Below, in pieces: positions 2 through 52,575 of a DNA stretch of 64,000 nt. A program made the position numbers and the translations under genes. Below the pieces are notes generated by a model. It worked only from the letters and a program-made list of their open reading frames with translations. It ran no database searches and had not been told where the DNA came from. Numbering within the stretch: the stretch's first letter is position 1; each line of letters begins with the position of its first letter. The stretch is taken from assembly GCF_051903065.1 (NCBI RefSeq), contig NZ_CP178438.1; one strand, 5' to 3'. The DNA comes from Escherichia coli (GTDB lineage: Bacteria > Pseudomonadota > Gammaproteobacteria > Enterobacterales > Enterobacteriaceae).

Positions 2-1450
2 GACTTAAACCCTAACGTCGCCAACCGCAACAAAGGCCCACGCCGTCAGCCGGAAAAGAATGTTTTCACCGATGAACAGATTGAGAAGCTGGAAGAAATC
101 TTCCATTCCTCCATGTTCAACTACCAGCGCCACTGGTGGGAAGCCGGAAAAACCAACCGCATCCGCAACCTGCTGAAGTCACGCCAGATCGGCGCAACCT
201 TCTATTTTGCCCGTGAAGCCCTGATTGACGCCCTGCTGACCGGACGTAACCAGATTTTCCTTTCCGCCAGCAAGGCACAGGCCCACGTCTTTAAGCAGTA
301 CATCATCGACTTCGCCAAAGAAGTGGAGGTGGAGCTGAAAGGTGATCCGATGGTGCTTCCTAACGGTGCCACGCTTTACTTCCTCGGCACCAATGCCCGC
401 ACTGCCCAGAGTTATCACGGCAACCTGTATCTGGATGAATATTTCTGGATACCGAAATTTCAGGAGCTGCGCAAAGTGGCTTCCGGTATGGCTATTCACA
501 AAAAATGGCGACAAACCTATTTTTCCACGCCATCCAGCCTGACACACAGTGCTTATCCGTTCTGGTCCGGTGCGCTGTTCAACCGTGGACGCAACAAAGC
601 CGACAAGGTGGACATCGACCTGTCCCACAGCAATCTGGCCCCCGGCCTGCTGTGCGCAGACGGGCAATACCGCCAGATAGTCACCGTGGAAGATGCGGTG
701 CGCGGCGGCTGTAACCTGTTCGACCTCGACCAGCTACGCATGGAGTACAGCCCGGACGAATACCAGAACCTGCTGATGTGCGAGTTCGTGGACGATCTCG
801 CGTCCGTGTTCCCGCTCAGCGAACTGCAGGCGTGCATGGTGGACAGTTGGGAAGTCTGGACCGACTTTCATGCACTGGCCCTGCGCCCGTTTGGCTGGCG
901 CGAGGTGTGGATCGGTTATGACCCGGCAAAAGGTACGCAGAACGGCGACAGCGCCGGATGCGTGGTGGTGGCACCGCCAGCCGTGCCAGGCGGTAAGTTT
1001 CGCATTCTTGAGCGTCACCAGTGGCGCGGGATGGACTTCCGCGCCCAGGCTGACGCCATCAAAAAACTGACCGAACAGTACAACGTGACCTATATCGGCA
1101 TCGACTCGACAGGTGTCGGTCACGGGGTTTACGAGAACGTGAAAGCGTTCTTTCCTGCCGTCCGGGAGTTTGTCTACAACCCCAACGTTAAAAACGCCCT
1201 GGTACTCAAAGCCTACGACATTATCAGTCACCGTCGTCTGGAGTTTGACGCCGGACACACCGACATAGCGCAGTCATTTATGGCAATCCGTCGCGCCACC
1301 ACCGCCAGTGGCAACCGCCCGACCTATGAAGCCAGCCGCAGCGAAGAAGCCAGCCACGCCGATCTGGCCTGGGCAACGATGCACGCACTGTTTAACGAAC
1401 CGCTGCAGGGCGAGTCCGCCAATACCAGCAATATTGTGGAGATTTTTTGA
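2..1450 (+). CDS. Phage terminase large (ATPase) subunit, P2 gpP-like; 5' end lies off the window (reading frame open to position 2)
   Basis: Translation shows a terminase-type ATPase N-region (KSRQIGATFYFAREA) and no in-frame stop upstream of 113; gene order P then Q as in P2-family phages. Confidence 0.8.
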   Translation, partial: DLNPNVANRNKGPRRQPEKNVFTDEQIEKLEEIFHSSMFNYQRHWWEAGKTNRIRNLLKSRQIGATFYFAREALIDALLTGRNQIFLSASKAQAHVFKQYIIDFAKEVEVELKGDPMVLPNGATLYFLGTNARTAQSYHGNLYLDEYFWIPKFQELRKVASGMAIHKKWRQTYFSTPSSLTHSAYPFWSGALFNRGRNKADKVDIDLSHSNLAPGLLCADGQYRQIVTVEDAVRGGCNLFDLDQLRMEYSPDEYQNLLMCEFVDDLASVFPLSELQACMVDSWEVWTDFHALALRPFGWREVWIGYDPAKGTQNGDSAGCVVVAPPAVPGGKFRILERHQWRGMDFRAQADAIKKLTEQYNVTYIGIDSTGVGHGVYENVKAFFPAVREFVYNPNVKNALVLKAYDIISHRRLEFDAGHTDIAQSFMAIRRATTASGNRPTYEASRSEEASHADLAWATMHALFNEPLQGESANTSNIVEIF

Positions 1451-2475
1451 TGGGAAAGAGTAAGAAAAACCGCGCTGCGGCGACGAATCAGCTCAAGCAT
1501 AAAAGCCAAACTTCAGCCGAAGCATTCAGCTTCGGTGATCCCATTCCAGTACTTGACCGCCGCGAACTGCTGGACTATGTGGAATGCGTACAGACGGATC
1601 GCTGGTATGAGCCACCCGTAAGTTTTGACGGACTGGCGCGAACATTCCGCGCCGCCGTTCACCACAGCTCACCGATTGCAGTGAAATGCAACATTCTGAC
1701 CAGTACCTACATCCCTCACCCGCTGCTCAGCCAGCAGGCTTTTTCGCGTTTTGTGCAGGACTATCTGGTTTTTGGTAACGCCTACCTGGAGAAACGCACG
1801 AACCGGTTCGGTGAAGTGATCGCCATTGAGCCTGCTCTGGCAAAATACACCCGACGCGGGTTAGACCTTGATACCTACTGGTTTGTGCAATACGGTATGA
1901 CAACCCAGCCGTATCAGTTCACGAAAGGCAACATTTTTCATCTGATGGAACCTGACATTAACCAGGAGATCTACGGCCTGCCCAGCTATCTTTCTGCTAT
2001 TCCGTCCGCCCTGCTCAACGAGTCCGCCACGCTGTTCCGCCGCAAGTATTACATTAACGGCAGCCATGCAGGTTTCATCATGTACATGACCGATGCCGCG
2101 CAGAACCAGGAGGATGTGAACAACCTCCGCAACGCGATGAAAAGCGCCAAAGGTCCAGGCAATTTCCGCAACCTGTTTATGTACTCGCCTAACGGCAAAA
2201 AAGACGGACTTCAGATCATTCCTCTGTCTGAAGTCGCGGCGAAGGATGAGTTTTTAAACATCAAGAACGTGAGCCGGGACGATATGATGGCTGCGCATCG
2301 TGTTCCGCCACAGATGATGGGGATCATGCCGAATAATGTTGGGGGGTTTGGGGATGTGGAGAAGGCCAGCCGCGTGTTTGTCCGAAATGAATTGATGCCG
2401 CTTCAAAAATGTCTTGAAGGTATCAATTGTTGGCTAGATGCAGATGTAATAAAGTTTAACCAATACATTTTGTAA
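1447..2475 (+). CDS. Phage portal (capsid) protein, P2 gpQ-like
   Basis: 342-aa ORF immediately downstream of and overlapping the terminase gene; size and position match P2 Q. Confidence 0.75.
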   Translation: MMGKSKKNRAAATNQLKHKSQTSAEAFSFGDPIPVLDRRELLDYVECVQTDRWYEPPVSFDGLARTFRAAVHHSSPIAVKCNILTSTYIPHPLLSQQAFSRFVQDYLVFGNAYLEKRTNRFGEVIAIEPALAKYTRRGLDLDTYWFVQYGMTTQPYQFTKGNIFHLMEPDINQEIYGLPSYLSAIPSALLNESATLFRRKYYINGSHAGFIMYMTDAAQNQEDVNNLRNAMKSAKGPGNFRNLFMYSPNGKKDGLQIIPLSEVAAKDEFLNIKNVSRDDMMAAHRVPPQMMGIMPNNVGGFGDVEKASRVFVRNELMPLQKCLEGINCWLDADVIKFNQYIL

Positions 2476-2486
2476 ATTCCTTCGGT

Positions 2487-2511
2487 AAAAGGCCGCTATG
2501 CGGCCTTTTTT
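2487..2511. terminator. Bidirectional hairpin terminator between portal gene and convergent cargo gene
   Basis: ggccgc-tat-gcggcc stem-loop flanked by A-run and T-run. Confidence 0.6.
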
Positions 2512-3202
2512 AATTTGCGTCATCATTTTTTTTATTTTCTAAAGACTCAATATACCCTCGCAAATTAAATTCTTTATTTTCTCTGAGTTTAGGTCCTTCT
2601 TTAGTATCTGAGCCTCGTTGCTCACGTAAACTTTTATTCAAAGCATCGATCAATTCTTGTCTAGAGATTTCCGTTGCAATTAACCCATCAAAATATCTCT
2701 TCATTTTTCTCGCGCTCTCGGTTACTTTAACAACTTCAAAACCAAGGCAGAGCAAATAAATTAGCGTTGTTATTGTAAATCCAGTATCTACAGAGATAAA
2801 ATAGCCAATATCGAGCACTTTCTTAAGTGATTCCAAGGGCATAACCATGCACAATAAAACCAAAAGCAAACCAGTGCCAAGATATAAATAAGTCATTGAG
2901 TTTCTTTCAATCAGCTTGAAGTACTCATCTCTCTGACCTTCAAAGCTAGCAACAATCTTAGGGGGTGTTTTTTTTGGAAGATCGAGGTCTCGAATTTTAT
3001 CCTGAAGATCTACGTATCTTTTAATAAGTAAACCGACTATGGCAGCAGTGATTAATGAAAGCGTTTTCGATAAAATATTGCCCATTTCCACGAGCACATT
3101 TAATTTATAATTAATCAGATATACTACACTCGATGCCAATACTCCACTTAAAATGGATAATATTATATAAAACGCATATCGCTCCACTCGATTTTTAATC
3201 AT
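2510..3202 (-). CDS. Hypothetical 4-TM membrane protein (candidate effector of a two-gene cargo cassette)
   Basis: 230-aa ORF with about four hydrophobic helices and a charged C-terminal tail; AT-rich; overlaps upstream gene by 4 bp. Confidence 0.6.
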   Translation of the reverse strand: MIKNRVERYAFYIILSILSGVLASSVVYLINYKLNVLVEMGNILSKTLSLITAAIVGLLIKRYVDLQDKIRDLDLPKKTPPKIVASFEGQRDEYFKLIERNSMTYLYLGTGLLLVLLCMVMPLESLKKVLDIGYFISVDTGFTITTLIYLLCLGFEVVKVTESARKMKRYFDGLIATEISRQELIDALNKSLREQRGSDTKEGPKLRENKEFNLRGYIESLENKKNDDAN

Positions 3203-4188
3203 GGATTTATTACCCCATCAGCTAACAATCTGAGCAACCACTCTACCATTTCCTCACAAACGCTATCAATAACAGGCATCCCATTATTATATTCAATATT
3301 GACGGTGTCTTTTATTTGTATTTCGTCATTTCTTAAAATACCTGCGCCTTTTAACTCTATGGTTAATGCTTCATCACGGTTATCGATAAGAGCCTCCGTA
3401 ATTTTCCTTAAAATATTTTGTTCCTCATCATTAGCTTTATATTTATACCCTATAGAAACATCTATCGTTAAATGTTCTCGAGACATGTCAACTGAAACAT
3501 CCTGTGATGCATTGTGTTTACGCAACACATCAACTCTGTGCTCACCGATAAGAGATTTCAATAATTCACTAGCGACATCATCTACTCCATCTCCATAAGA
3601 GGATAGAGGCAGCTTCAAGCTTACATTTTTTACATTGCTACGCATCAGCAATTCATTAGTCAAACGTAAATTTCCTGCTTGTAATATAATAAAGTTATCA
3701 ACATCAACCCTTAGATTATCCTTCAAAATGTAATTAATATAATTTTCAATATCTTTAATTCTAATTGCACGACTTTGCAATATTATTACATGATTTTTGA
3801 CAATCCCGATATATGCAACACTATCTAAATATTCTTTCGGAACACTTCCAGTAAGCTTTAATGCTTCATAAGCCAATCGATTTTTTTTATATTCTGAAAC
3901 ATCAAAAACTGGCACACTATTCCCTGGCTCAATATAAACTATTTCACCAAAAAATATACCATTCCGTTCGAAGGAATCAGATAAAACCATGTGCGCGTGG
4001 CTGCTAACACAAGGGTCACTATCTCCAGTTTCAAGATAGTAAATTCTGTCCTCAACGGTTGGAAACTTGTGATTAACAATTTCGTTCATACGATTCTGCA
4101 AATCACTTGCTAAAAGAGCATCCTTTTTAGGAAGCATTACTGCGTGTCGATAGTGTAACGCTTTAACTTTTGAGGGATTACTGGCCAT
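3199..4188 (-). CDS. Hypothetical soluble protein (candidate sensor partner of the 4-TM protein); alternative TTG start at 4230
   Basis: ORF 3199..4230 in track; the ATG at 4188 (MASNPSKV) has a GGA 7 nt upstream; AT-rich; no family recognised. Confidence 0.55.
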   Translation of the reverse strand: MASNPSKVKALHYRHAVMLPKKDALLASDLQNRMNEIVNHKFPTVEDRIYYLETGDSDPCVSSHAHMVLSDSFERNGIFFGEIVYIEPGNSVPVFDVSEYKKNRLAYEALKLTGSVPKEYLDSVAYIGIVKNHVIILQSRAIRIKDIENYINYILKDNLRVDVDNFIILQAGNLRLTNELLMRSNVKNVSLKLPLSSYGDGVDDVASELLKSLIGEHRVDVLRKHNASQDVSVDMSREHLTIDVSIGYKYKANDEEQNILRKITEALIDNRDEALTIELKGAGILRNDEIQIKDTVNIEYNNGMPVIDSVCEEMVEWLLRLLADGVINP

Positions 4189-4270
4189 GAAACATCCATT
4201 ATTAATCTTAGATTTAGTGATATGGAACAATCATACAATCTGTTAATTTTTCTTGCCACAACTCCTTTTC

Positions 4271-4300
4271 GCGCGCTCGTATCCCCGCCACGCCTGCCCG
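4271..4300 (-). other. Putative phage cos site (cohesive-end region)
   Basis: Reverse complement reads GGCGTGGCGGGGATACGAG, resembling the P2/186 cohesive-end sequence as recalled from memory. Confidence 0.35.
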
Positions 4301-4498
4301 CTTTATGTAGTGGTTTTCATGCAGGTGCATGATCTACGCAAAAGCCCGCCAGTTCTGGCGGGCCTTAGCAAAAACGATCCTCAAACGATCATGCGATCTC
4401 ATGCGGCATAGACATGCACTACAGAGCTAACGCCTCGCAAGGGCTCGTTGTTCAACCTTGCTGACGCCAGAAACAAGTTCAGACGCCAGCAACGTTTC

Positions 4499-4732
4499 TT
4501 AATGCAGCCAGCTGTCGTCTTCCCACACCTTCTGCATAATTTTCATCACTTGTTTTCTTTCTTCGTCCAGTTGCAGTCCGGTCAGTTCCACACCGTTAGA
4601 GCTACCTTTGCGGATACGAATTACCGTTTTGGGATACAGGGGGCGCAGATTGCGGTAAAGCTCGGATTCAAGGGCGTCCAGTGTAGACTGGCTAATCTTC
4701 TGCTCTTTATCGATCATTATTTCAATGCGCAT
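4499..4732 (-). CDS. DinI-like protein (possibly the C-terminal part of a frameshifted tum-like antirepressor gene)
   Basis: Translation MRIEIMIDKEQ...WEDDSWLH resembles the DinI family; the longer ORF 4499..4804 overlaps the upstream small ORF in another frame. Confidence 0.6.
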   Translation of the reverse strand: MRIEIMIDKEQKISQSTLDALESELYRNLRPLYPKTVIRIRKGSSNGVELTGLQLDEERKQVMKIMQKVWEDDSWLH

Positions 4733-4742
4733 AAAAGTCACC

Positions 4743-4931
4743 TCAGCTGATGACATCCATTGAGCGGTTGTATTCGTGGGTTCTGATTTTTGCCATGAGT
4801 TCATCTGTCAGTTCAGAAACCCACTGCAGAGCCAGCCCCTTCTCTTCATCACTACACTCACTAGCCGCTACAAGCTTAAGAAAAAAATCAATGCGCTGGA
4901 GCTTCAAAGACTCCAAAAAATAGTCCTGCAT
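4743..4931 (-). CDS. Small SOS-regulated ORF (possible N-terminal part of a tum-like gene)
   Basis: 62-aa ORF directly downstream of a LexA box; with the DinI-like ORF spans about 144 codons. Confidence 0.4.
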   Translation of the reverse strand: MQDYFLESLKLQRIDFFLKLVAASECSDEEKGLALQWVSELTDELMAKIRTHEYNRSMDVIS

Positions 4932-5083: not shown

Positions 5084-7498
5084 TTAATACAGGTTTCGCC
5101 ACTTATCATCTTCCTGCAAACGCTGGTTCCGATAGAAGATACGCAGGCCTGCTCCTGACGGAATACTGCCACCGCGAAGGAGTAAATCGACCTCTTTCTC
5201 GCTGCCATCAAATCCTCTGGACTTCAGTTCATAGACGAGCTGCTGTCGCTGATGATCTGTAATTCGCTGTTTGTAGTCTTTACGCCGTTTCGGCTTAACC
5301 AGGCGTAACCTTGCTGCCAGTTCCCGGCGCTCTTTTTTGCTCATACTGTGCAGATAATCGTGCAACTCCTTGTCATCCATGCGGGTAATATCCGTTCTGG
5401 TGTCCCCATCAGCTGATTTATCTTTCTCCTGTTGGTTCAAATTTTCAGCAAGGGGACAGTTATTGCCACGAGTCCAAGGGGCGCAAGCGCCCTGGTCGGC
5501 TACCGCCTCCTGAACGTCAACGGCTTTACGAACCATTTTCCACTTCACTGCATGAGTGCAGATCTTGCCCTCTGCAATGGGTGACCAGATGCCATAAATA
5601 CGAATGCCGTGATCGCCATAGGCGGTCGGCTCTTCGTTAATTTCATAAGCAGTTCTGATGAGGTGATATTTGCGGGGAACCAGTACGCCACCCTGCTTCA
5701 TGATGTAAGTGGCAAAACAACCAGCATCAGCAGCAGCCAGGATGGCATCAAGGCGCGGGTTATCCAGTACCGGCGCACCTGCTTTTTTGTCGCCCTGTTG
5801 CCTTGCCGCCTGACCAGCCAGCAATCGCAGTTCACGGTAAGCCTGACGCCCCGGAATACCAAAGAAGCGGAATTGCTGAACACGATGCAGAGACGCCCAG
5901 GCATTAACGTATTCAGCGTTATCACGCAGGGATTTACCCGTTTCCTTGCTGATCTCGCCAGCCAGACCACGCCCGTCAATGTTCTTACTAATGTATTTCG
6001 CAATGTAGCTTGTCGGCGTTCCTTTGCGCGGGTTTATCAGCTCAGACTTAAAGCGTGGCCCCGTGTTATTGCCCAGCTCCTCGCGGTCTTCACGGATGGC
6101 AAACTTACGCAACAATGCAGTAATGGCGCGGCGGTCTTTTTTGCGCATGAAACACAACAGGTGCCAGTGAACTGTGCCGTCATGATGCGGCTCAGCCACC
6201 CGCACGCCATACCAGCGCAACCCGGCTTTGTGCATAGCCTTACGAAATGCAGCAAACATGCCGACCAGATAATCGCTGCTTTGTCTTACTGTCGCGTTGG
6301 TCCAGGTCGGGTTTGGCCTGCCGTTATTTAGCGTGGAATGGAAACGTGACGGACAGGTGATGGTGTAGAAAACGGCGCAGTCACCACGCATTTCCGCGAT
6401 AAGCTCCAGGCCTTTAACACAGGCCATCATCTCGTTGCGGCGATGCGCCGGGTTGCTGCTGCTGGCGTTTACCACATCCTCCATGTTCAGCGTGTCGCCG
6501 TCTTCGTTCACCAGTTCATGAGAACGGAAAAACTCCAGCGACTTACGGCGCTGCTCACGTTTATGCATCACGGCTTCATAGCTAACATAGGGAGATGCTT
6601 TTTTGCTGACCAGGCAGACAGCACGCAACTGCTCTTCCCGCAATTCGCAACGCATCTTCCATAATTTCCGATACCACCAGTCGGCGCACAGCATACGCGC
6701 CAGCGAACCCGGAATGAGTTCATAAGGCACAGGTTTGCGGCGGTTTCTTTTCCGGCGGAGTTGCTCAAACGCAGGCGGTATGACATCCAGTCGCAGGGTT
6801 TCTGCAGCCACCTTTTCCCATGTCTTGCGGATTTCTTCTGGCTTAACATCATCGGAGGCGTACAAATCACCACAAGCGGCATCAAGACACATGCTCATAT
6901 GCGCAGCGACAAGGGTAGACAGGCGTTTCACCTGATCCTGACTCATTTCAGGCAGGATCAGCAGACCGTCCAGCCCCTCATGGCTTGCCATAAAACGAAA
7001 AGATGCAGATAGCTGGCTGTCGCGTACATGCTCCAGTCGTTCCAGACATGGCTTAATCGTCTCACGCAAATAGCGGGAATAAGCCTTTGGCCTGCCCATG
7101 CTGCTGAAATATTCAATACGTTGCATCAGCGGCTTGCTGATATGGGAAGGCTGGGCGTTGACGTCAGCCAGAATGACCATGTCTGGATTAAAACGCTGCT
7201 GCTCATGCGCCATCTTTGCCCGGCTAATGAGCTTATCCTGCTCCATTTCGCGTTGGACAGGATCACGGGATTCATTAAAGAAATAATGCTCCCAGACCTG
7301 ATCACTCAGTGCCTCGCGGCGCAGTTGTTCCTGCTCGTTATCGGTAGCGTACAGAGTGATCAGGTTTGAAAGCGCAGAAACCGGCGCAACTTCCGCCGGG
7401 TCCAGATAAGGGTTAATGGCCTTTTTCGGGCTGTTCCATGAGAACGCTGCGGCAGCCTCGTTAAAGCCGCAGCAGTTGTTCATATCGGCATGACTCAT
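5084..7498 (-). CDS. Phage replication initiation protein (P2/186 gene A-like rolling-circle endonuclease)
   Basis: 804-aa ORF in the early-operon position of P2-like phages. Confidence 0.75.
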
Positions 7499-9899: not shown

Positions 9900-9931
9900 G
9901 CTACCCCCTTAGAAAGTTCTCATAATTGAAC

Positions 9932-10174
9932 TCACTTACCAACAATGACGCGGAAGTTGGAATGACCTAGGGATTCACGGACCTGATCGGTTTTGTACAT
10001 TAAATAACGCAGACTTACGCGGCCTTTGTTTTTTTCTTTCTTGACCATGTATTTAGCAAGCTGACCATGGTGAATTTTTTGATACACGGAGCCGCGGGAG
10101 ATACCTTCCCATTCCGCGAACTCTGCTGGCGTAGCCATCTCTTTTGGTACACGAATTGAAATATCAGTGCTCAT
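9932..10174 (-). CDS. Apl/Cox-like excisionase and lytic-switch HTH protein
   Basis: 80-aa HTH ORF first in the early operon, divergent from the repressor gene. Confidence 0.6.
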   Translation of the reverse strand: MSTDISIRVPKEMATPAEFAEWEGISRGSVYQKIHHGQLAKYMVKKEKNKGRVSLRYLMYKTDQVRESLGHSNFRVIVGK

Positions 10175-10233
10175 AGTGCAGTATCTCCCGATTAAGGTTT
10201 GGTTTACGTCGTTTTATCTCGTTTTACTTGATT

Positions 10234-10276
10234 CAATATTTGATACATCGAGATACTACGATCCAATATTTGATAC
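10234..10276. promoter_or_regulatory. Putative operator repeats in the CI/apl divergent promoter region
   Basis: Two copies of CAATATTTGATAC spaced 30 bp apart. Confidence 0.4.
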
Positions 10277-10293
10277 GTCAACAGGATTAAAAA

Positions 10294-10926
10294 ATGATAC
10301 AGGTAAAGGCTGGAGAGAATACAGGGGGAAGAGAGGCTATCCATAGACTAATGGCAGCCTATGATTTCAAGTCCAGACAGCAACTTTGCGATCACTTAGG
10401 CGCATCAAAAAGCACCATGGCAAACAGATACTTAAGAGATAGTTTTCCTGCAGAGTGGGTGATTCAGTGCGCCTTGGAAACAGGAGTTTCTTTACTGTGG
10501 CTAACCACCGGACAGGGAGAGCCAGGTCCAAACATTGAACCTAAAAAAAATATCAATTCCGTGAACTCCAGCAAAGTTGTACCTCTTTCTGAACTAGTAT
10601 CTCCTGAAATTGACAAGGCGACTCTCAACGGTGGTTTATTGGTCGATGCTGGAAAAGCAATCATTGATAGCAGCATACTCCCCTCAGACTCAAGCAACCT
10701 ACTGCTGGTGACTACTTCTGGTGATTCTTATTTAATAGATCGCAACCAAACACCACCAGTAAATGGTATGTGGTTAGTCGATATCGACGGGATAAAAAGC
10801 ATTGTTAAATTGACTCGGCTCCCGGGAAACAAATTAGTAGTGCATCAGGATGATTCATCGTTTGAGTGCGGTCTGGATGACATTGAGGTAGTAGGCCGCG
10901 CACTGAAAATCATTAAGAGCCTTTGA
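10294..10926 (+). CDS. cI: Prophage CI-like immunity repressor
   Basis: 210-aa ORF with N-terminal HTH, located directly upstream of int as in 186. Confidence 0.6.
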   Translation: MIQVKAGENTGGREAIHRLMAAYDFKSRQQLCDHLGASKSTMANRYLRDSFPAEWVIQCALETGVSLLWLTTGQGEPGPNIEPKKNINSVNSSKVVPLSELVSPEIDKATLNGGLLVDAGKAIIDSSILPSDSSNLLLVTTSGDSYLIDRNQTPPVNGMWLVDIDGIKSIVKLTRLPGNKLVVHQDDSSFECGLDDIEVVGRALKIIKSL

Positions 10927-10927
10927 T

Positions 10928-11941
10928 ATGACCATCAGAAAACAGCCGAACGGAAAATGGTTGTGTGAGTGCTATCCCAATGGACGCAATGGCAAGCGCG
11001 TGCGTAAGCAATTTGCTACGAAAGGCGAAGCCATTGCGTTTGAAAGCTTCACAATGGAAGAAGTGAATAAAAAACCGTGGTTGGGTGAAAAGGATGATCG
11101 GCGACGCCTATCAGAATTAATTGAGCTTTGGTATTCCCTGTATGGTCAAACACTCGCAGACCCCAAGCGCCTCATGGCGAAACTTAGAATTATCTGTAAT
11201 GGTCTAGGCGATCCCATCGCCTCAGAACTGACAGCTGGTGACTTTACAAAATACCGCGAAGCACGGTTAAAAGGTGAAATACGAAATGAAGATGGCACGC
11301 TTATGTCGCCCGTTAAGCCCCGCACGGTAAACCTTGAACAGCGCAATCTATCATCTGTGTTCGGTACATTAAAAAAACTAGGACACTGGTCAGCACCAAA
11401 CCCGCTGGCAGGACTTCCGACCTTCAAAATTGCCGAAGGTGAGCTGGCTTTTCTTTCCACAGACGAAATCAAGCGCCTGTTGGCGGCATGTGCTGAATCT
11501 CAAAACCCTAGCTTACTAATGATTGCAAAAATATGCCTAGCTACTGGCGCACGGTGGAGTGAAGCCGAAAATCTGCAGGGCCACCAAATATCGAAATACC
11601 GAATTACTTATACAAAAACAAAAGGCAAGAAAAACAGAACAGTACCCATATCACAGGAGCTGTATGACGAACTCCCAAAGAACAGAGGGAAGTTATTCTC
11701 ACCATGTAGAAAAGCCTTTGAACGAGCAGTAAAACGGGCAGGTATAGATCTACCGGATGGCCAATGCACCCACGTGCTGCGACATACGTTTGCTAGTCAC
11801 TTTATGATGAATGGCGGGAACATACTTGTGCTAAGGGATATTTTGGGACATTCGGATATCAAGATGACCATGGTTTACTCACATTTCTCACCAGATCATC
11901 TTGAAGATGCCGTTACTAAGAACCCATTAAACTTGATATAA
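10928..11941 (+). CDS. int: Tyrosine integrase, P2 family
   Basis: 337 aa; C-terminal HxLRHT...Y catalytic region; resembles P2 Int. Confidence 0.9.
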   Translation: MTIRKQPNGKWLCECYPNGRNGKRVRKQFATKGEAIAFESFTMEEVNKKPWLGEKDDRRRLSELIELWYSLYGQTLADPKRLMAKLRIICNGLGDPIASELTAGDFTKYREARLKGEIRNEDGTLMSPVKPRTVNLEQRNLSSVFGTLKKLGHWSAPNPLAGLPTFKIAEGELAFLSTDEIKRLLAACAESQNPSLLMIAKICLATGARWSEAENLQGHQISKYRITYTKTKGKKNRTVPISQELYDELPKNRGKLFSPCRKAFERAVKRAGIDLPDGQCTHVLRHTFASHFMMNGGNILVLRDILGHSDIKMTMVYSHFSPDHLEDAVTKNPLNLI

Positions 11942-11954
11942 AACAGCCAAAATT

Positions 11955-13712
11955 CTATTTCATCAAGTAATCCAATTCATCCTTCATAGGTATAACTTGC
12001 TCATAAAGTCTATGGTAGGATTTTCCAATTGCGCCCCTAAATTGAATAAGTTTAGGGGAAAAGCTACCGATATTAATAATATGTTCTTGCGCTATACCAG
12101 GATATGGATCGATAAAAATAATCTCTGTCATACCTAACTGATAAGCTTTTTTAGCACAAAGTTCACAAGGGCTAGCTGTAGTATATAGTTTCCCTCCATT
12201 AATACCGACCCCACCATATTTGGCCAATTGCAAAAAAGCATTCTCCTCTGCGTGTAATGCACGGGTATGCACTTGATTCCCTTTCTTTTCATCATCAAGG
12301 CTGTTGTGAATATCTTTAAAACAATATGGCAAATTAAGTCCTTTAAAAACAGTAGAACTTGAATCACTCGCCCTTATTTTTATTAAATTTTCTTTAACTT
12401 TACTCCTAAATTTTGTATTACTTCGTTCGTACAGGCTATATGTTCCCTCATCAAAATCATGCAATAACCCATCAAATGACCTCATAGAACAAGGAACTTG
12501 ACCTTTTGCTACATCGTTCCAACCAACTGACTTGATAGAGTTATCATTATCTGTCACAACCGCCCCTACTTGCCTAGATATACATCCAGAATTTAGTTTT
12601 ACAGTATATGCAACTTGCATAACCCTTTCCATGGCGGTAGGAGATATTAATCCAGGGTGTTGCATTAATGATACATACCACGCAATTTGTGCTTTGAGAA
12701 AATTATTATTATCAAATTCTTTTTTAGGGTTAAAAAAATGTATATCTGAAATTTCAATGCATTTTTTTACATTAGGATTAGTAAGATGATTATACTCGCC
12801 ATCTCCTTTACCAGATTCTTCATCATTAATTTTCTTTATCTGTTCCTCTGAGAACTTATGTAATTTCTTTAAATATCTGGTTCGATGTTCATCTGGTGCA
12901 TTTATAGAAACCAGATGGAATGCAGCATATCTATCTTTGAAGAATTTAGCTTCATACGGGTTACGTATCGCATCAATGACTATATACGCTTTATTATTCT
13001 TTACTTTTCTAATTATTTTAATAACACGATTAATTGTTTCAGGTAAATGAAAAACAGCCTTTGGAATAAAGTCTTGATTTTCATAATCTACATCAACCTT
13101 CCCTATTCTTCTAATTGACTTTCCTGCTGACTGATATAGCTCAATATATAAACCTGGCTCTAGTTCATTTAATTCCCTTTTAAAATCCCGTGTAAATTTT
13201 CGAGTAAGAGTTAATATCCTAATAAAGGTATCTTTCCCCCTGCCTTTAAAGTCAATCTCATCATCATGATTAAGAAGATTTTTTATCACCTCAAGATATT
13301 TTATCTTCAACAAACTTTTAGCGAACACACCATTAACAACCAGTTTCTTGGCTACCTTAAAGGAAATCGAATTTTCTTTTTTATCGGGGATTTTACTTGC
13401 AGAAAACTGAATGAATTTAGCTAAGGCCGATGGAGATAAAAGGAGCAAATATATTGAAATGAGATCACTGACCTTTATCGAATAGAAGTTCTTCCAATGA
13501 GTCTCTGCAAAATTTTTTACTATTTCATAACGCCGCAAATCCAATCCTTTATAATACTCAGCCAAGACGTTACTATCTGGAAAAGATATTTCTTTTTGTT
13601 CTAAAATATTTGCTGCAGTAGTACATCCTGAGCCAGTTCTCCCAGTTAAACCAATAAGAATAAATTGACTATTTTCTAAAAAAAGCTCACTAATAAATTT
13701 GTGTTCTCTCAT
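11955..13712 (-). CDS. P-loop nucleotide-kinase / cytidine-deaminase fusion protein (candidate antiphage dCTP-deaminase-type cargo gene)
   Basis: N-terminal GLTGRTGSGCTT Walker-A-like motif; C-terminal HAEENA...PCELC zinc-deaminase motif; AT-rich; lies between int and attR. Confidence 0.65.
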   Translation of the reverse strand: MREHKFISELFLENSQFILIGLTGRTGSGCTTAANILEQKEISFPDSNVLAEYYKGLDLRRYEIVKNFAETHWKNFYSIKVSDLISIYLLLLSPSALAKFIQFSASKIPDKKENSISFKVAKKLVVNGVFAKSLLKIKYLEVIKNLLNHDDEIDFKGRGKDTFIRILTLTRKFTRDFKRELNELEPGLYIELYQSAGKSIRRIGKVDVDYENQDFIPKAVFHLPETINRVIKIIRKVKNNKAYIVIDAIRNPYEAKFFKDRYAAFHLVSINAPDEHRTRYLKKLHKFSEEQIKKINDEESGKGDGEYNHLTNPNVKKCIEISDIHFFNPKKEFDNNNFLKAQIAWYVSLMQHPGLISPTAMERVMQVAYTVKLNSGCISRQVGAVVTDNDNSIKSVGWNDVAKGQVPCSMRSFDGLLHDFDEGTYSLYERSNTKFRSKVKENLIKIRASDSSSTVFKGLNLPYCFKDIHNSLDDEKKGNQVHTRALHAEENAFLQLAKYGGVGINGGKLYTTASPCELCAKKAYQLGMTEIIFIDPYPGIAQEHIINIGSFSPKLIQFRGAIGKSYHRLYEQVIPMKDELDYLMK

Positions 13713-21800: not shown

Positions 21801-23069
21801 ATGTATGATTTTGTGATTATTGGCGGTGGCATCATCGGCATGTCGACCGCCATGCAACTGATTGATGTCTACCCGGATGCCCGCATTGCGTTGCTGGAGA
21901 AAGAGTCCGGCCCGGCCTGTCACCAGACGGGCCACAACAGCGGCGTGATCCATGCCGGGGTTTATTACACGCCCGGCAGTCTGAAGGCGCAGTTTTGCCT
22001 GGCGGGAAACCGCGCCACCAAAGCCTTTTGCGATCAAAACGGCATTCGCTACGACAACTGCGGCAAGATGCTGGTCGCCACGTCTGAACTCGAAATGGAA
22101 CGGATGCGCGCCTTATGGGAACGCACGGCCGCGAACGGTATCGAGCGCGAGTGGTTAAACGCCGATGAACTGCGCGAGCGCGAACCGAATATCACCGGGC
22201 TTGGCGGTATTTTTGTGCCGTCCAGCGGCATTGTCAGCTACCGCGAAGTCACGGCGGCGATGGCAAAAATCTTCCAGGCCAGAGGCGGCGAGATTATCTA
22301 TAACGCCGAAGTCAGCGGCCTTAGTGAGCATAAAAACGGCGTGGTGATACGTACCCGTCAGGGTGGCGAATACGAAGCGTCAACGCTGATTAGCTGTTCC
22401 GGGCTGATGGCTGACCGGCTGGTGAAAATGCTCGGCCTCGAACCGGGCTTTATTATCTGCCCGTTCCGTGGCGAGTATTTCCGCCTGGTGCCGGAGCATA
22501 ACCAGATTGTTAACCACCTGATTTACCCCATCCCCGACCCGGCAATGCCGTTTTTAGGCGTTCATCTCACCCGCATGATCGACGGTAGCGTCACCGTTGG
22601 GCCAAACGCAGTGCTGGCGTTCAAACGCGAAGGCTATCGCAAGCGCGACTTCTCGTTTAGCGACACGCTGGAGATTTTAGGCTCGTCGGGGATTCGCCGG
22701 GTGCTGCAAAACCATCTACGCTCAGGACTGGGCGAGATGAAAAACTCGCTGTGCAAAAGCGGCTATCTGCGGCTGGTGCAAAAGTATTGTCCCCGGCTTT
22801 CGTTAAGCGATCTCCAGCCCTGGCCCGCCGGTGTGCGGGCGCAGGCGGTATCGCCGGACGGCAAGCTGATTGACGATTTTCTGTTTGTCACTACCCCGCG
22901 CACGATCCACACCTGCAATGCGCCCTCCCCGGCAGCGACATCAGCAATTCCTATTGGTGCGCATATTGTCAGCAAGGTACAAACGCTGTTGGCAAGCCAG
23001 AGTAACCCCGGACGCACGCTGCGAGCGGCACGTAGTGTGGATGCCTTACACGCCGCATTTAATCAATAA
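21801..23069 (+). CDS. lhgO: L-2-hydroxyglutarate dehydrogenase/oxidase
   Basis: FAD-binding GGGIIG N-terminus; synteny. Confidence 0.95.
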   Translation: MYDFVIIGGGIIGMSTAMQLIDVYPDARIALLEKESGPACHQTGHNSGVIHAGVYYTPGSLKAQFCLAGNRATKAFCDQNGIRYDNCGKMLVATSELEMERMRALWERTAANGIEREWLNADELREREPNITGLGGIFVPSSGIVSYREVTAAMAKIFQARGGEIIYNAEVSGLSEHKNGVVIRTRQGGEYEASTLISCSGLMADRLVKMLGLEPGFIICPFRGEYFRLVPEHNQIVNHLIYPIPDPAMPFLGVHLTRMIDGSVTVGPNAVLAFKREGYRKRDFSFSDTLEILGSSGIRRVLQNHLRSGLGEMKNSLCKSGYLRLVQKYCPRLSLSDLQPWPAGVRAQAVSPDGKLIDDFLFVTTPRTIHTCNAPSPAATSAIPIGAHIVSKVQTLLASQSNPGRTLRAARSVDALHAAFNQ

Positions 23070-44620: not shown

Positions 44621-46159
44621 ATGCAACAGCAAAAACCGCTGGAAGGCGCGCAACTGGTCATTATGACGATTGCGCTGTCACTGGCGACATTCATGCAGGT
44701 GCTGGACTCCACCATTGCTAACGTGGCGATCCCCACTATCGCCGGGAATCTGGGCTCATCGCTCAGCCAGGGAACGTGGGTAATCACTTCTTTCGGGGTG
44801 GCGAATGCCATCTCGATCCCGCTTACCGGCTGGCTGGCAAAGCGCGTCGGGGAAGTGAAACTGTTCCTCTGGTCCACCATCGCCTTTGCTATTGCGTCGT
44901 GGGCGTGTGGTGTCTCCAGCAGCCTAAATATGCTGATCTTCTTCCGCGTGATTCAGGGGATTGTCGCCGGGCCGTTGATCCCGCTTTCGCAAAGTCTATT
45001 GCTGAATAACTACCCGCCAGCCAAACGCTCAATCGCGCTGGCGTTGTGGTCGATGACGGTGATTGTCGCGCCAATTTGCGGCCCGATCCTCGGCGGCTAT
45101 ATCAGTGATAATTATCACTGGGGCTGGATATTCTTCATCAACGTGCCGATTGGCGTGGCGGTGGTGTTGATGACATTGCAGACGCTGCGCGGACGCGAAA
45201 CCCGCACCGAACGGCGGCGGATTGATGCCGTGGGGCTGGCACTGCTGGTTATTGGTATCGGCAGCCTGCAGATTATGCTCGACCGCGGTAAAGAGCTGGA
45301 CTGGTTTTCATCACAGGAAATTATCATCCTTACCGTGGTGGCGGTGGTGGCTATCTGCTTCCTGATTGTCTGGGAGCTGACCGACGATAACCCGATAGTC
45401 GATCTGTCGTTGTTTAAGTCGCGCAACTTCACCATCGGCTGCTTGTGTATCAGCCTCGCGTATATGCTCTACTTCGGCGCTATTGTTCTGCTGCCGCAGT
45501 TGTTGCAGGAGGTCTACGGTTACACGGCAACGTGGGCAGGTCTGGCCTCTGCGCCGGTAGGGATTATTCCGGTGATCCTGTCGCCGATTATCGGCCGCTT
45601 CGCGCATAAACTGGATATGCGCCGACTGGTAACCTTCAGCTTTATTATGTATGCCGTCTGCTTCTACTGGCGTGCCTATACCTTTGAACCGGGCATGGAT
45701 TTTGGCGCGTCGGCCTGGCCGCAGTTTATCCAGGGCTTCGCTGTGGCCTGCTTCTTTATGCCGCTGACCACCATTACGCTGTCTGGTTTGCCACCGGAAC
45801 GACTGGCGGCGGCATCAAGTCTCTCCAACTTTACGCGTACGCTGGCGGGGTCTATCGGCACGTCGATAACCACAACCATGTGGACCAACCGCGAGTCGAT
45901 GCACCATGCGCAGTTAACCGAGTCGGTAAACCCGTTCAACCCGAATGCCCAGGCGATGTACAGTCAACTGGAAGGGCTTGGGATGACGCAACAGCAGGCC
46001 TCCGGCTGGATTGCCCAGCAGATCACTAACCAGGGGCTGATTATTTCCGCCAATGAGATCTTCTGGATGTCAGCCGGGATATTCCTCGTCCTGCTGGGGC
46101 TGGTGTGGTTTGCTAAACCGCCATTTGGCGCAGGTGGCGGCGGAGGCGGTGCGCACTAA
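44621..46159 (+). CDS. emrB: Multidrug efflux MFS pump EmrB
   Basis: 512 aa from MQQQKPLEGAQL. Confidence 0.95.
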   Translation: MQQQKPLEGAQLVIMTIALSLATFMQVLDSTIANVAIPTIAGNLGSSLSQGTWVITSFGVANAISIPLTGWLAKRVGEVKLFLWSTIAFAIASWACGVSSSLNMLIFFRVIQGIVAGPLIPLSQSLLLNNYPPAKRSIALALWSMTVIVAPICGPILGGYISDNYHWGWIFFINVPIGVAVVLMTLQTLRGRETRTERRRIDAVGLALLVIGIGSLQIMLDRGKELDWFSSQEIIILTVVAVVAICFLIVWELTDDNPIVDLSLFKSRNFTIGCLCISLAYMLYFGAIVLLPQLLQEVYGYTATWAGLASAPVGIIPVILSPIIGRFAHKLDMRRLVTFSFIMYAVCFYWRAYTFEPGMDFGASAWPQFIQGFAVACFFMPLTTITLSGLPPERLAAASSLSNFTRTLAGSIGTSITTTMWTNRESMHHAQLTESVNPFNPNAQAMYSQLEGLGMTQQQASGWIAQQITNQGLIISANEIFWMSAGIFLVLLGLVWFAKPPFGAGGGGGGAH

Positions 46160-52482: not shown

Positions 52483-52575
52483 TGGCGGTGAGGCGGGGAT
52501 TCGAACCCCGGATGCAGCTTTTGACCGCATACTCCCTTAGCAGGGGAGCGCCTTCAGCCTCTCGGCCACCTCACC
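52483..52575 (-). tRNA. serV: tRNA-Ser (anticodon GCU)
   Basis: Reverse complement is GGTGAGGTGGCCGAGAGGCTGAAGGCGCTCCCCTGCTAAGGGAG...CGCCA with long variable arm. Confidence 0.9.

Follow-up and report, generated by a model that had tools for sequence, protein, structure and literature searches.

A probable cos packaging site of a Fels-2/186-like Escherichia coli prophage, next to an exchangeable cargo slot beside the portal gene

Introduction

In phage P2 the portal gene ends close to cos, with the stop codon of Q at base 187 and the cohesive end at bases 1–19, and in 186 the stop codon of W lies at base 196. A 55-bp cos core was described by Ziermann and Calendar (1990, Gene 96:9), as reported by papers that cite it (PMC5694545, PMC3931495). 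The Salmonella phage SEN8 (Felsduovirus; KT630647.2) has the cos sequence GGCGTGGCGGGGATACGAG, which was assigned by annotation and not by end sequencing (PMC5427200). That the interval between cos and the portal gene is a swap site has been known since the 1990s. Judging by its title and by citing papers, the study of Dodd and Egan (1996) described cargo between cos and the portal gene. In phiCTX, ctx lies between cosL and the gpQ homologue (Nakayama 1999, as given in PMC5694545), and ORF1–4 of phiRSY1 lie in the corresponding interval, a place explicitly called a hotspot (Askora 2017, PMC5694545). Furthermore, passages of Rousset et al. (2022; PMC9122126) describe a gpA–gpQ hotspot beside cos that is highly variable among E. 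coli prophages.

The 64-kb stretch of E. coli DNA analysed here, which we call the window, contains part of a prophage of this family. An earlier note on this DNA had proposed that the only cos-like sequence lies beyond a two-gene cargo cassette, that the portal gene of P2 ends close to cos, as is indeed the case, and that the cassette had been inserted between the portal gene and cos, defining a precise hotspot. We find that the cos assignment is correct. From sequence comparison we put at about 90% the probability that the minus-strand segment from 4269 to about 4418 is the cos packaging site of a Fels-2/186-like (Peduoviridae) E. coli prophage. The cassette next to it is one of many alternatives exchanged at the same place.

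Methods

For P2, 186 and P4, whose records annotate the cohesive ends, the right end was joined to the left end and the product was aligned with the window. A profile HMM was built from the cos regions of P2, 186 and P4 alone and used in an nhmmer search of the 64-kb window. The repeat scan around cos covered positions 4231–4520. Two samples of related loci were compared. The Fels-2/186-type sample consists of 80 viral contigs with portal proteins 91–95% identical to that of the window, and the P2-type sample of 80 contigs with portal proteins at least 99% identical; each is the best 80 of more than 600, and the members of each are not phylogenetically independent. The ungapped divergence profile was read on the replication side up to about 400 nt and ignored past that point, where indels misalign gpA and make it unusable.

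Results

Prophage setting and gene order

The host DNA that flanks the prophage has a match in 5425 of 5426 complete E. coli genomes. The first base of the window falls within the large-terminase gene P of a P2-family prophage. The frame of this gene is open from base 2, its 5′ part being cut by the window start, and the gene, which matches Pfam Terminase_6N/6C, continues on the plus strand up to base 1450. The portal gene (1447–2475, plus strand) encodes a 342-aa homologue of gpQ/W (Pfam Phage_portal, E 1.1e-17) and is transcribed towards cos. Read along the plus strand, the map is P, Q, a terminator, the two-gene cassette, the cos gap, a DinI/Tum-like gene, gpA (5084–7498, minus strand) and the integrase gene (10928–11941). 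The longest ORF of the DinI/Tum-like gene spans 4499–4804 on the minus strand (Pfam DinI, E 1.3e-22; phrog_189), and RefSeq annotates a near-identical copy in a 234-nt version; tum of 186 occupies the equivalent position beside the right end. The order P–Q–[cargo]–cos–DinI–gpA...int is also that of Fels-2, phage 813R9 and SEN8, and the P2 map is the window order read backwards.

All prophage genes visible in the window (P, Q, DinI, gpA and int) are intact ORFs, P from the first codon in the window onwards. The same cassette occurs in E. coli NZ_AP027829.1 (L090), where the P2-like prophage is complete and has genes for capsid, terminase, tail and lysis. Both terminase subunits, gpP and gpM, are encoded in that genome; the window shows gpP only, cut at its start.

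Other possible cargo was seen away from cos. Directly past the integrase gene, a 585-aa ORF (11955–13712, minus strand) is named 'anti-phage dCTP deaminase' in near-identical E. coli genomes; possibly it is one more cargo or defence gene, at the integrase–att edge of the prophage. In L090, a SIR2-family gene and a hypothetical gene (9921–11443) lie between the baseplate V and virion-morphogenesis genes; this is a second cargo slot, within the late genes.

The cos site

The earlier note had placed a cos-like sequence on the minus strand of the 268-bp gap between the cassette and the DinI-like gene (4231–4498). It is there, as GGCGTGGCGGGG at 4283–4294, and it is the sole such sequence, the motif GGCG[A/T]GGCGGGG having one exact match in the 64-kb window. 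GGCGTGGCGGGG extends to the 19-mer GGCGTGGCGGGGATACGAG (4276–4294, minus strand). In the alignment that the note had suggested, the window is in register with the cos regions of P2 and 186, and also with those of P4 and SEN8, which places the predicted cleavage at 4294/4295. The 19-mer, which falls in register with the ends annotated for P2, 186 and P4, is thus the predicted 19-nt 5′ cohesive end, with predicted cuts between 4295 and 4294 on the top strand and between 4276 and 4275 on the bottom strand. We infer the exact bottom-strand cut from the register only, because overhang positions 14–19 differ from those of P2 and 186. For the same reason, the full 186 19-mer, GGCGTGGCGGGGAAAGCAT, has no match in the window at up to three mismatches. 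In type, the predicted cohesive end of the window corresponds to Fels-2/SEN8 and not to 186.

The search with the P2/186/P4 profile returned a single match in the window, at 4270–4419 on the minus strand (63.6 bits, E 6.8e-19), the next best match having an E value of 3.8. Neither this search nor the motif search with mismatches found a better cos elsewhere in the window. Two one-mismatch matches to the 12-mer were rejected: the one at 45152 lies inside a coding region and the one at 52487 at the 3′ end of a tRNA gene, both without flanking cos features. The segment 52420–52540 contains tRNA gene ends with a run of T-arm sequence of the GGTTCGAA type, and the near-match there, GGTGAGGCGGGG, is a chance one due to this T-arm sequence.

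The 55-bp core (−29 to +26; 4269–4323, minus strand) aligns without gaps among P2, 186, P4, SEN8 and the window. It forms one end of a conserved cos island of about 150 bp (about −124 to +26; 4269–4418, minus strand) that has variable DNA on both flanks. Among 52–70 unique relatives, taken from the best 80 of more than 600, the island is mostly at least 90% conserved from about −123 to +26. Conservation drops past about −123 and collapses to random from +27 (70 unique relatives from the same best 80 of more than 600). The 19-nt end is nearly invariant across 76 related loci from this best-80 sample, +19 being conserved at 0.97.

The island is marked by GCAT boxes at fixed offsets, a cos feature that we derived from the reference sites and not from the literature. 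One box, at −28 inside the core (4319–4322, minus strand), has an equal offset in the window, 186, P2, P4 and SEN8, and three more, at −100, −110 and −123 (4391–4417, minus strand), have equal offsets in the window, 186, P4 and SEN8; the boxes of P2 are at −122, −110, −100 and −28. The DNA between the boxes differs among the window, 186, P4, SEN8 and P2, and GCATG occurs five times in the island where 0.21 would be expected. The boxes at −100, −110 and −123 are putative terminase recognition elements of the right arm. The right arm also holds a hairpin followed by TTTTG (4338–4369, minus strand; −44 to −75), with 15-nt arms that are 87% complementary. This is probably the terminator of the DinI/Tum-like SOS operon. 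At the equivalent position 186, SEN8 and P4 each have an inverted repeat, whereas P2 has none, and the hairpin may have a dual use in transcription termination and packaging recognition.

Several phage records put small hypothetical ORFs over the cos island. In L090 a RefSeq pseudogene at 21915–22103 ('hypothetical protein, internal stop') spans it, and the window has an ORF at 4253–4411 on the plus strand. Such ORF and pseudogene calls are probably spurious, made on a conserved non-coding site.

The cassette between the portal gene and cos

The distance from the portal stop to the 19-nt end is 168–177 bp in P2 and 186 but 1.8 kb in the window. This interval is wholly made up of a terminator and the two-gene cassette, and from the portal stop at 2475 to cos +27 it forms the portal-side variable segment, or cargo slot (2476–4268). 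The position that the earlier note gave to the cassette therefore stands. Its term 'inserted' needs refining: 74 of 75 related loci (from the best 80 of more than 600) carry some cassette at this place, and the cassette is better understood as one of many exchanged alternatives than as a one-off insertion. The limits of the hotspot can be given: its right edge is at cos +26/+27 (4269/4268), and its left edge is a gradient in the last ~40 portal codons.

A hairpin at 2487–2509 (10-bp stem with six G–C pairs, then a T run) is a predicted bidirectional terminator, common to the portal gene and the convergent cassette and the counterpart of tQ and tW annotated in P2 and 186. The related loci (best 80 of more than 600) all have a hairpin at this place, and each has a different one. 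Cassette gene 2 (2510–3202, minus strand) encodes a 230-aa membrane protein with an all-helical structure model and four predicted transmembrane segments (four hydrophobic 19-mers). Cassette gene 1 (3199–4188, minus strand) encodes a 329-aa soluble protein with a predicted RexA/RdgC-like fold. RefSeq uses the ATG at 4188 as its start in a near-identical copy (99.5% DNA identity), and the longest ORF runs from a TTG at 4230. The two genes overlap by 4 nt, with the start of gene 2 in gene 1. A promoter-like site, GTGGCA-18-TATGAT (4230–4259, minus strand; 9/12 consensus), lies in the variable DNA just past cos. Promoter- and terminator-like matches here are consensus matches and are no commoner than in shuffled sequence.

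Both cassette proteins have small families, in which every member is named hypothetical; the homologues of the gene 2 product fall into ten clusters. The 230-aa protein has no match in Pfam, PADLOC, PHROG or NCBIfam, and the 329-aa protein has none in Pfam, PADLOC or NCBIfam and matches only a PHROG of uncharacterised function. No transposase or integrase was found among the cassette proteins with Pfam, PHROG and NCBIfam. The cassette is present in 2 of 5426 complete E. coli genomes, and its flanks in 1282.

In layout, and partly in predicted fold, the cassette is similar to RexA–RexB of phage lambda. RexA has 279 aa against 329 aa for the product of gene 1, and RexB is 144 aa long, the product of gene 2 being 230 aa. 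The model with the RexA-like fold is of moderate confidence (pLDDT 70). The possible RexB counterpart, the 230-aa protein, has four hydrophobic segments, and its gene lies directly downstream with the 4-nt overlap. A profile search of the PDB by sequence and a PADLOC scan of all family members gave no link to RexA, and no sequence similarity to RexAB was detectable for the cassette proteins, nor did any PADLOC model match. With Foldseek against viral models, the 329-aa protein hit uncharacterised phage proteins only and the membrane protein nothing significant. We treat the resemblance to RexAB as a lead and not as a classification.

Cargo slots in related prophages

All counts in this section are from the best 80 of more than 600 of the respective sample. 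In the Fels-2/186-type sample, a cos motif lies downstream of Q in 75 of the 80 contigs, 167–3505 bp past the portal stop. The distance is below 500 bp in one of these 75 loci, L067, and the other 74 carry some portal-side cassette. Clustering of the cargo gave 45 types in 70 loci, 152–3490 bp in size, the type of the window being unique in the sample. L067 (9050–9217) has the sole near-empty portal-side slot of the 75, a 152-bp spacer with a terminator-like hairpin of its own. The left-arm spacer of P2 and 186 (~140 bp, from +27 to the portal terminator) is absent from both the window and L067, to whose spacer it is unrelated, and within this best-80 sample it is kept nowhere in the lineage of the window.

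On the other side of cos there is a replication-side (gpA-side) slot, from −124 to the DinI stop, which is empty in the window (4418–4498, 81 bp). A spacer of 80–81 bp occupies this place in 22 of 70 loci, the window included, and the other loci have slots of 736–2941 bp, with 20 types in all (70 loci). Fels-2, SEN8 and 186 (orf97) carry a gene in this slot, unlike the window.

The P2-type sample has the reverse arrangement. The portal–cos distance is 163–192 bp in 77 of 79 loci and the portal tail is invariant, whereas the replication side has 47 different contents in 69 loci. Which side of cos is loaded is thus dependent on lineage, being the replication side in the P2 type and the portal side in the Fels-2/186 type.

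Linkage breaks at cos

The left edge of the exchanged module lies within the portal gene, whose 3′ end (codons ~304–342; 2356–2475, plus strand) is hypervariable. Among 75 unique relatives from the best 80 of more than 600, nucleotide diversity in Q is 0.01–0.16 up to codon ~303 and 0.2–0.5 thereafter. The amino-acid pattern ...LQ..L.E.N.W....[IV]I.F..Y.L is kept despite this DNA divergence. The tail co-varies with the adjacent cargo type, each type having its own tail and its own hairpin.

Twelve cargo types recur with different replication-side types in this best-80 sample. Loci that share one of these twelve cargo types differ by 0–2 nt in the 120-nt portal tail and have mismatch rates of 0.08 and 0.00 at +25 and +26. 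Their 123-nt right arms differ by 3–21 nt, which is the background level, including SNPs at −6, −11, −14 and −17. Conversely, loci with the same replication-side type and different cargo have near-identical right arms (mismatch about 0 from −118 to −6), with +25 and +26 mismatched at background level. Leftward from the cargo, divergence between loci of the same cargo type is 0.004 in the tail and 0.03–0.06 over the length of Q; some 1.3 kb into P it is at background. The number of independent exchange events behind this linkage map is small, about a dozen. A portal-side module (tail, cassette and +25/+26) and a replication-side module (−123 to −6, gpA-side slot and DinI) reassort freely. As linkage fades gradually to the left, over ~2 kb of Q and P, and stops abruptly within −5 to +24, the left end of the exchanged module is graded and its right end is fixed.

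Discussion

By analogy with P2, 186 and P4, the terminase of the phage (gpM and gpP) would recognise the right arm through the GCAT boxes at −123, −110, −100 and −28 together with the core, and would then nick the two strands 19 nt apart to leave the 5′ overhang GGCGTGGCGGGGATACGAG. The conserved and presumably required sequence stops at +26, so that the DNA from +27 to the portal gene would be free to vary. This slot would be the home of interchangeable cargo cassettes, here a two-gene cassette of 1.8 kb, which makes the cassette in the window one allele of the known cos-proximal hotspot, on its portal side. The sequences themselves show the identity of the site, its position, its conservation and the variability of its flanks; from them we infer that terminase cuts here, that the GCAT boxes take part in its recognition and that the prophage may still be able to package its DNA.

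It could be argued that the resemblance to cos is a chance or decoy one and that the real packaging site lies elsewhere, such as beside the portal gene or outside the window, given that the overhang matches that of 186 at only 13 of 19 positions. We consider this hardly credible: only 34 bp, a terminator hairpin, separate the portal stop from the cassette, the profile search found one match at E 6.8e-19 and nothing else under E 3, and the island is mostly at least 90% conserved in relatives (best 80 of more than 600) whose flanks are unrelated. The site might also be intact and yet a fossil, in a defective prophage in which it is never cut, and the position of the cassette would then say nothing about constraints on packaging. 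Prophage decay is common, only 2 of 5426 complete E. coli genomes have this very cassette, and the window opens inside gene P, so that the completeness of the prophage is not visible. This reading is less far-fetched than a decoy but still improbable in our view, as P, Q, DinI, gpA and int are all intact where visible, dozens of relatives have an identical core and a genome with the same cassette holds a full set of late genes. Moreover, even if this copy were dead, the site would be the same and so would the architecture of its lineage.

The origin of the cassette has to be weighed separately from the identity of the site. The wording of the earlier note would fit de novo insertion of a self-mobile element (a transposon, or an integron-like or retron-like element) into an empty cos–portal spacer, and an 'empty' state does exist, in the 152-bp spacer of L067. 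However, the cassette contains no transposase or integrase, 74 of 75 relatives (best 80 of more than 600) hold another cassette at the same place, and the portal tail and terminator have diverged along with each cassette type. The last of these observations is expected if related phages swap modules, but not if an element inserts into a fixed target. With repeats scanned over 4231–4520, we regard de novo insertion as very unlikely.

How the modules are swapped is a more tentative matter. A graded left end is typical of homologous crossovers. The abrupt break in linkage falls within a 29-bp interval (−5 to +24) that holds the cohesive end, and this fits exchange through cohesive ends: once terminase has cut or the DNA has been injected, genomes of different phages could join at cohesive ends that are compatible, and the joint could then be resolved by one ordinary homologous crossover. 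Passages of Rousset et al. (2022; PMC9122126) contain a speculation of this kind, in which the ends formed at cos are a substrate for recombination and a second, homologous event follows. Alternatively, homologous crossovers may merely be confined to the sole block of ~30 bp that is invariant in all lineages. We give the proposal that cos itself is the crossover point for exchange of the cargo module somewhat less than even odds. A corollary of the proposal is that the gpA–gpQ hotspot may be two slots, with lineage deciding which of them is loaded.

The cos call fixes the genome ends of this prophage, and its value lies mainly in annotation. For engineering and mining, it gives the rule that any DNA from cos +27 to the portal terminator can be replaced, because nothing past +26 is conserved. 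The slot that the cassette occupies is a recognised one for cargo and defence, so that the cassette is a reasonable candidate anti-phage system. Two side results may be of modest general interest, namely the evidence from population sequences that the cos cut is the pivot of cassette exchange in P2-like phages, and the way in which the C-terminal tail of the portal protein hitch-hikes with the cargo.

The locus can be set against the systems introduced above. In the P2 family as in the window, cos lies between the portal gene and the DinI/tum–replication side. The −29 to +26 core is common to the window and the cos sites of P2, 186 and P4, and the first 13 nt of the predicted overhang are shared with 186; positions 14–19 differ, with ATACGAG in the window and AAAGCA(C/T) in P2 and 186. 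Where P2 and 186 have a spacer of ~140 bp from +27 to the portal terminator, the window has cargo. SEN8 is closer still, with a cos 19-mer that is letter for letter that of the window and a nearly identical right arm. It also carries two genes between cos and the portal gene, encoding a hypothetical protein and a putative HNH endonuclease, so that the cargo itself differs.

Among described cargo sites, the slot of Dodd and Egan, as its title and citing papers present it, belongs to an E. coli prophage that is related to 186 and has a Dam methylase gene, and it runs from cos to the portal-gene terminator, as in the window; the cargo of the window, however, is not a retron. The main-text passages of Rousset et al. 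(PMC9122126) treat gpA–gpQ as one locus, whereas we find two slots split by a cos island of ~150 bp. The window cassette has the properties of cargo in this cos-proximal hotspot, in that it lies between gpA and gpQ, adjoins cos at +27 and is replaced by unrelated cargo in similar prophages. It is on the same, portal, side of cos as gop-beta-cII of P4, unlike old and tin of P2, which are in the replication-side slot. In phiCTX and phiRSY1 the morons likewise occupy the interval from the left cohesive end to the portal gene, although the hosts (Pseudomonas and Ralstonia) and the overhang variants are different and the cargo is unrelated.
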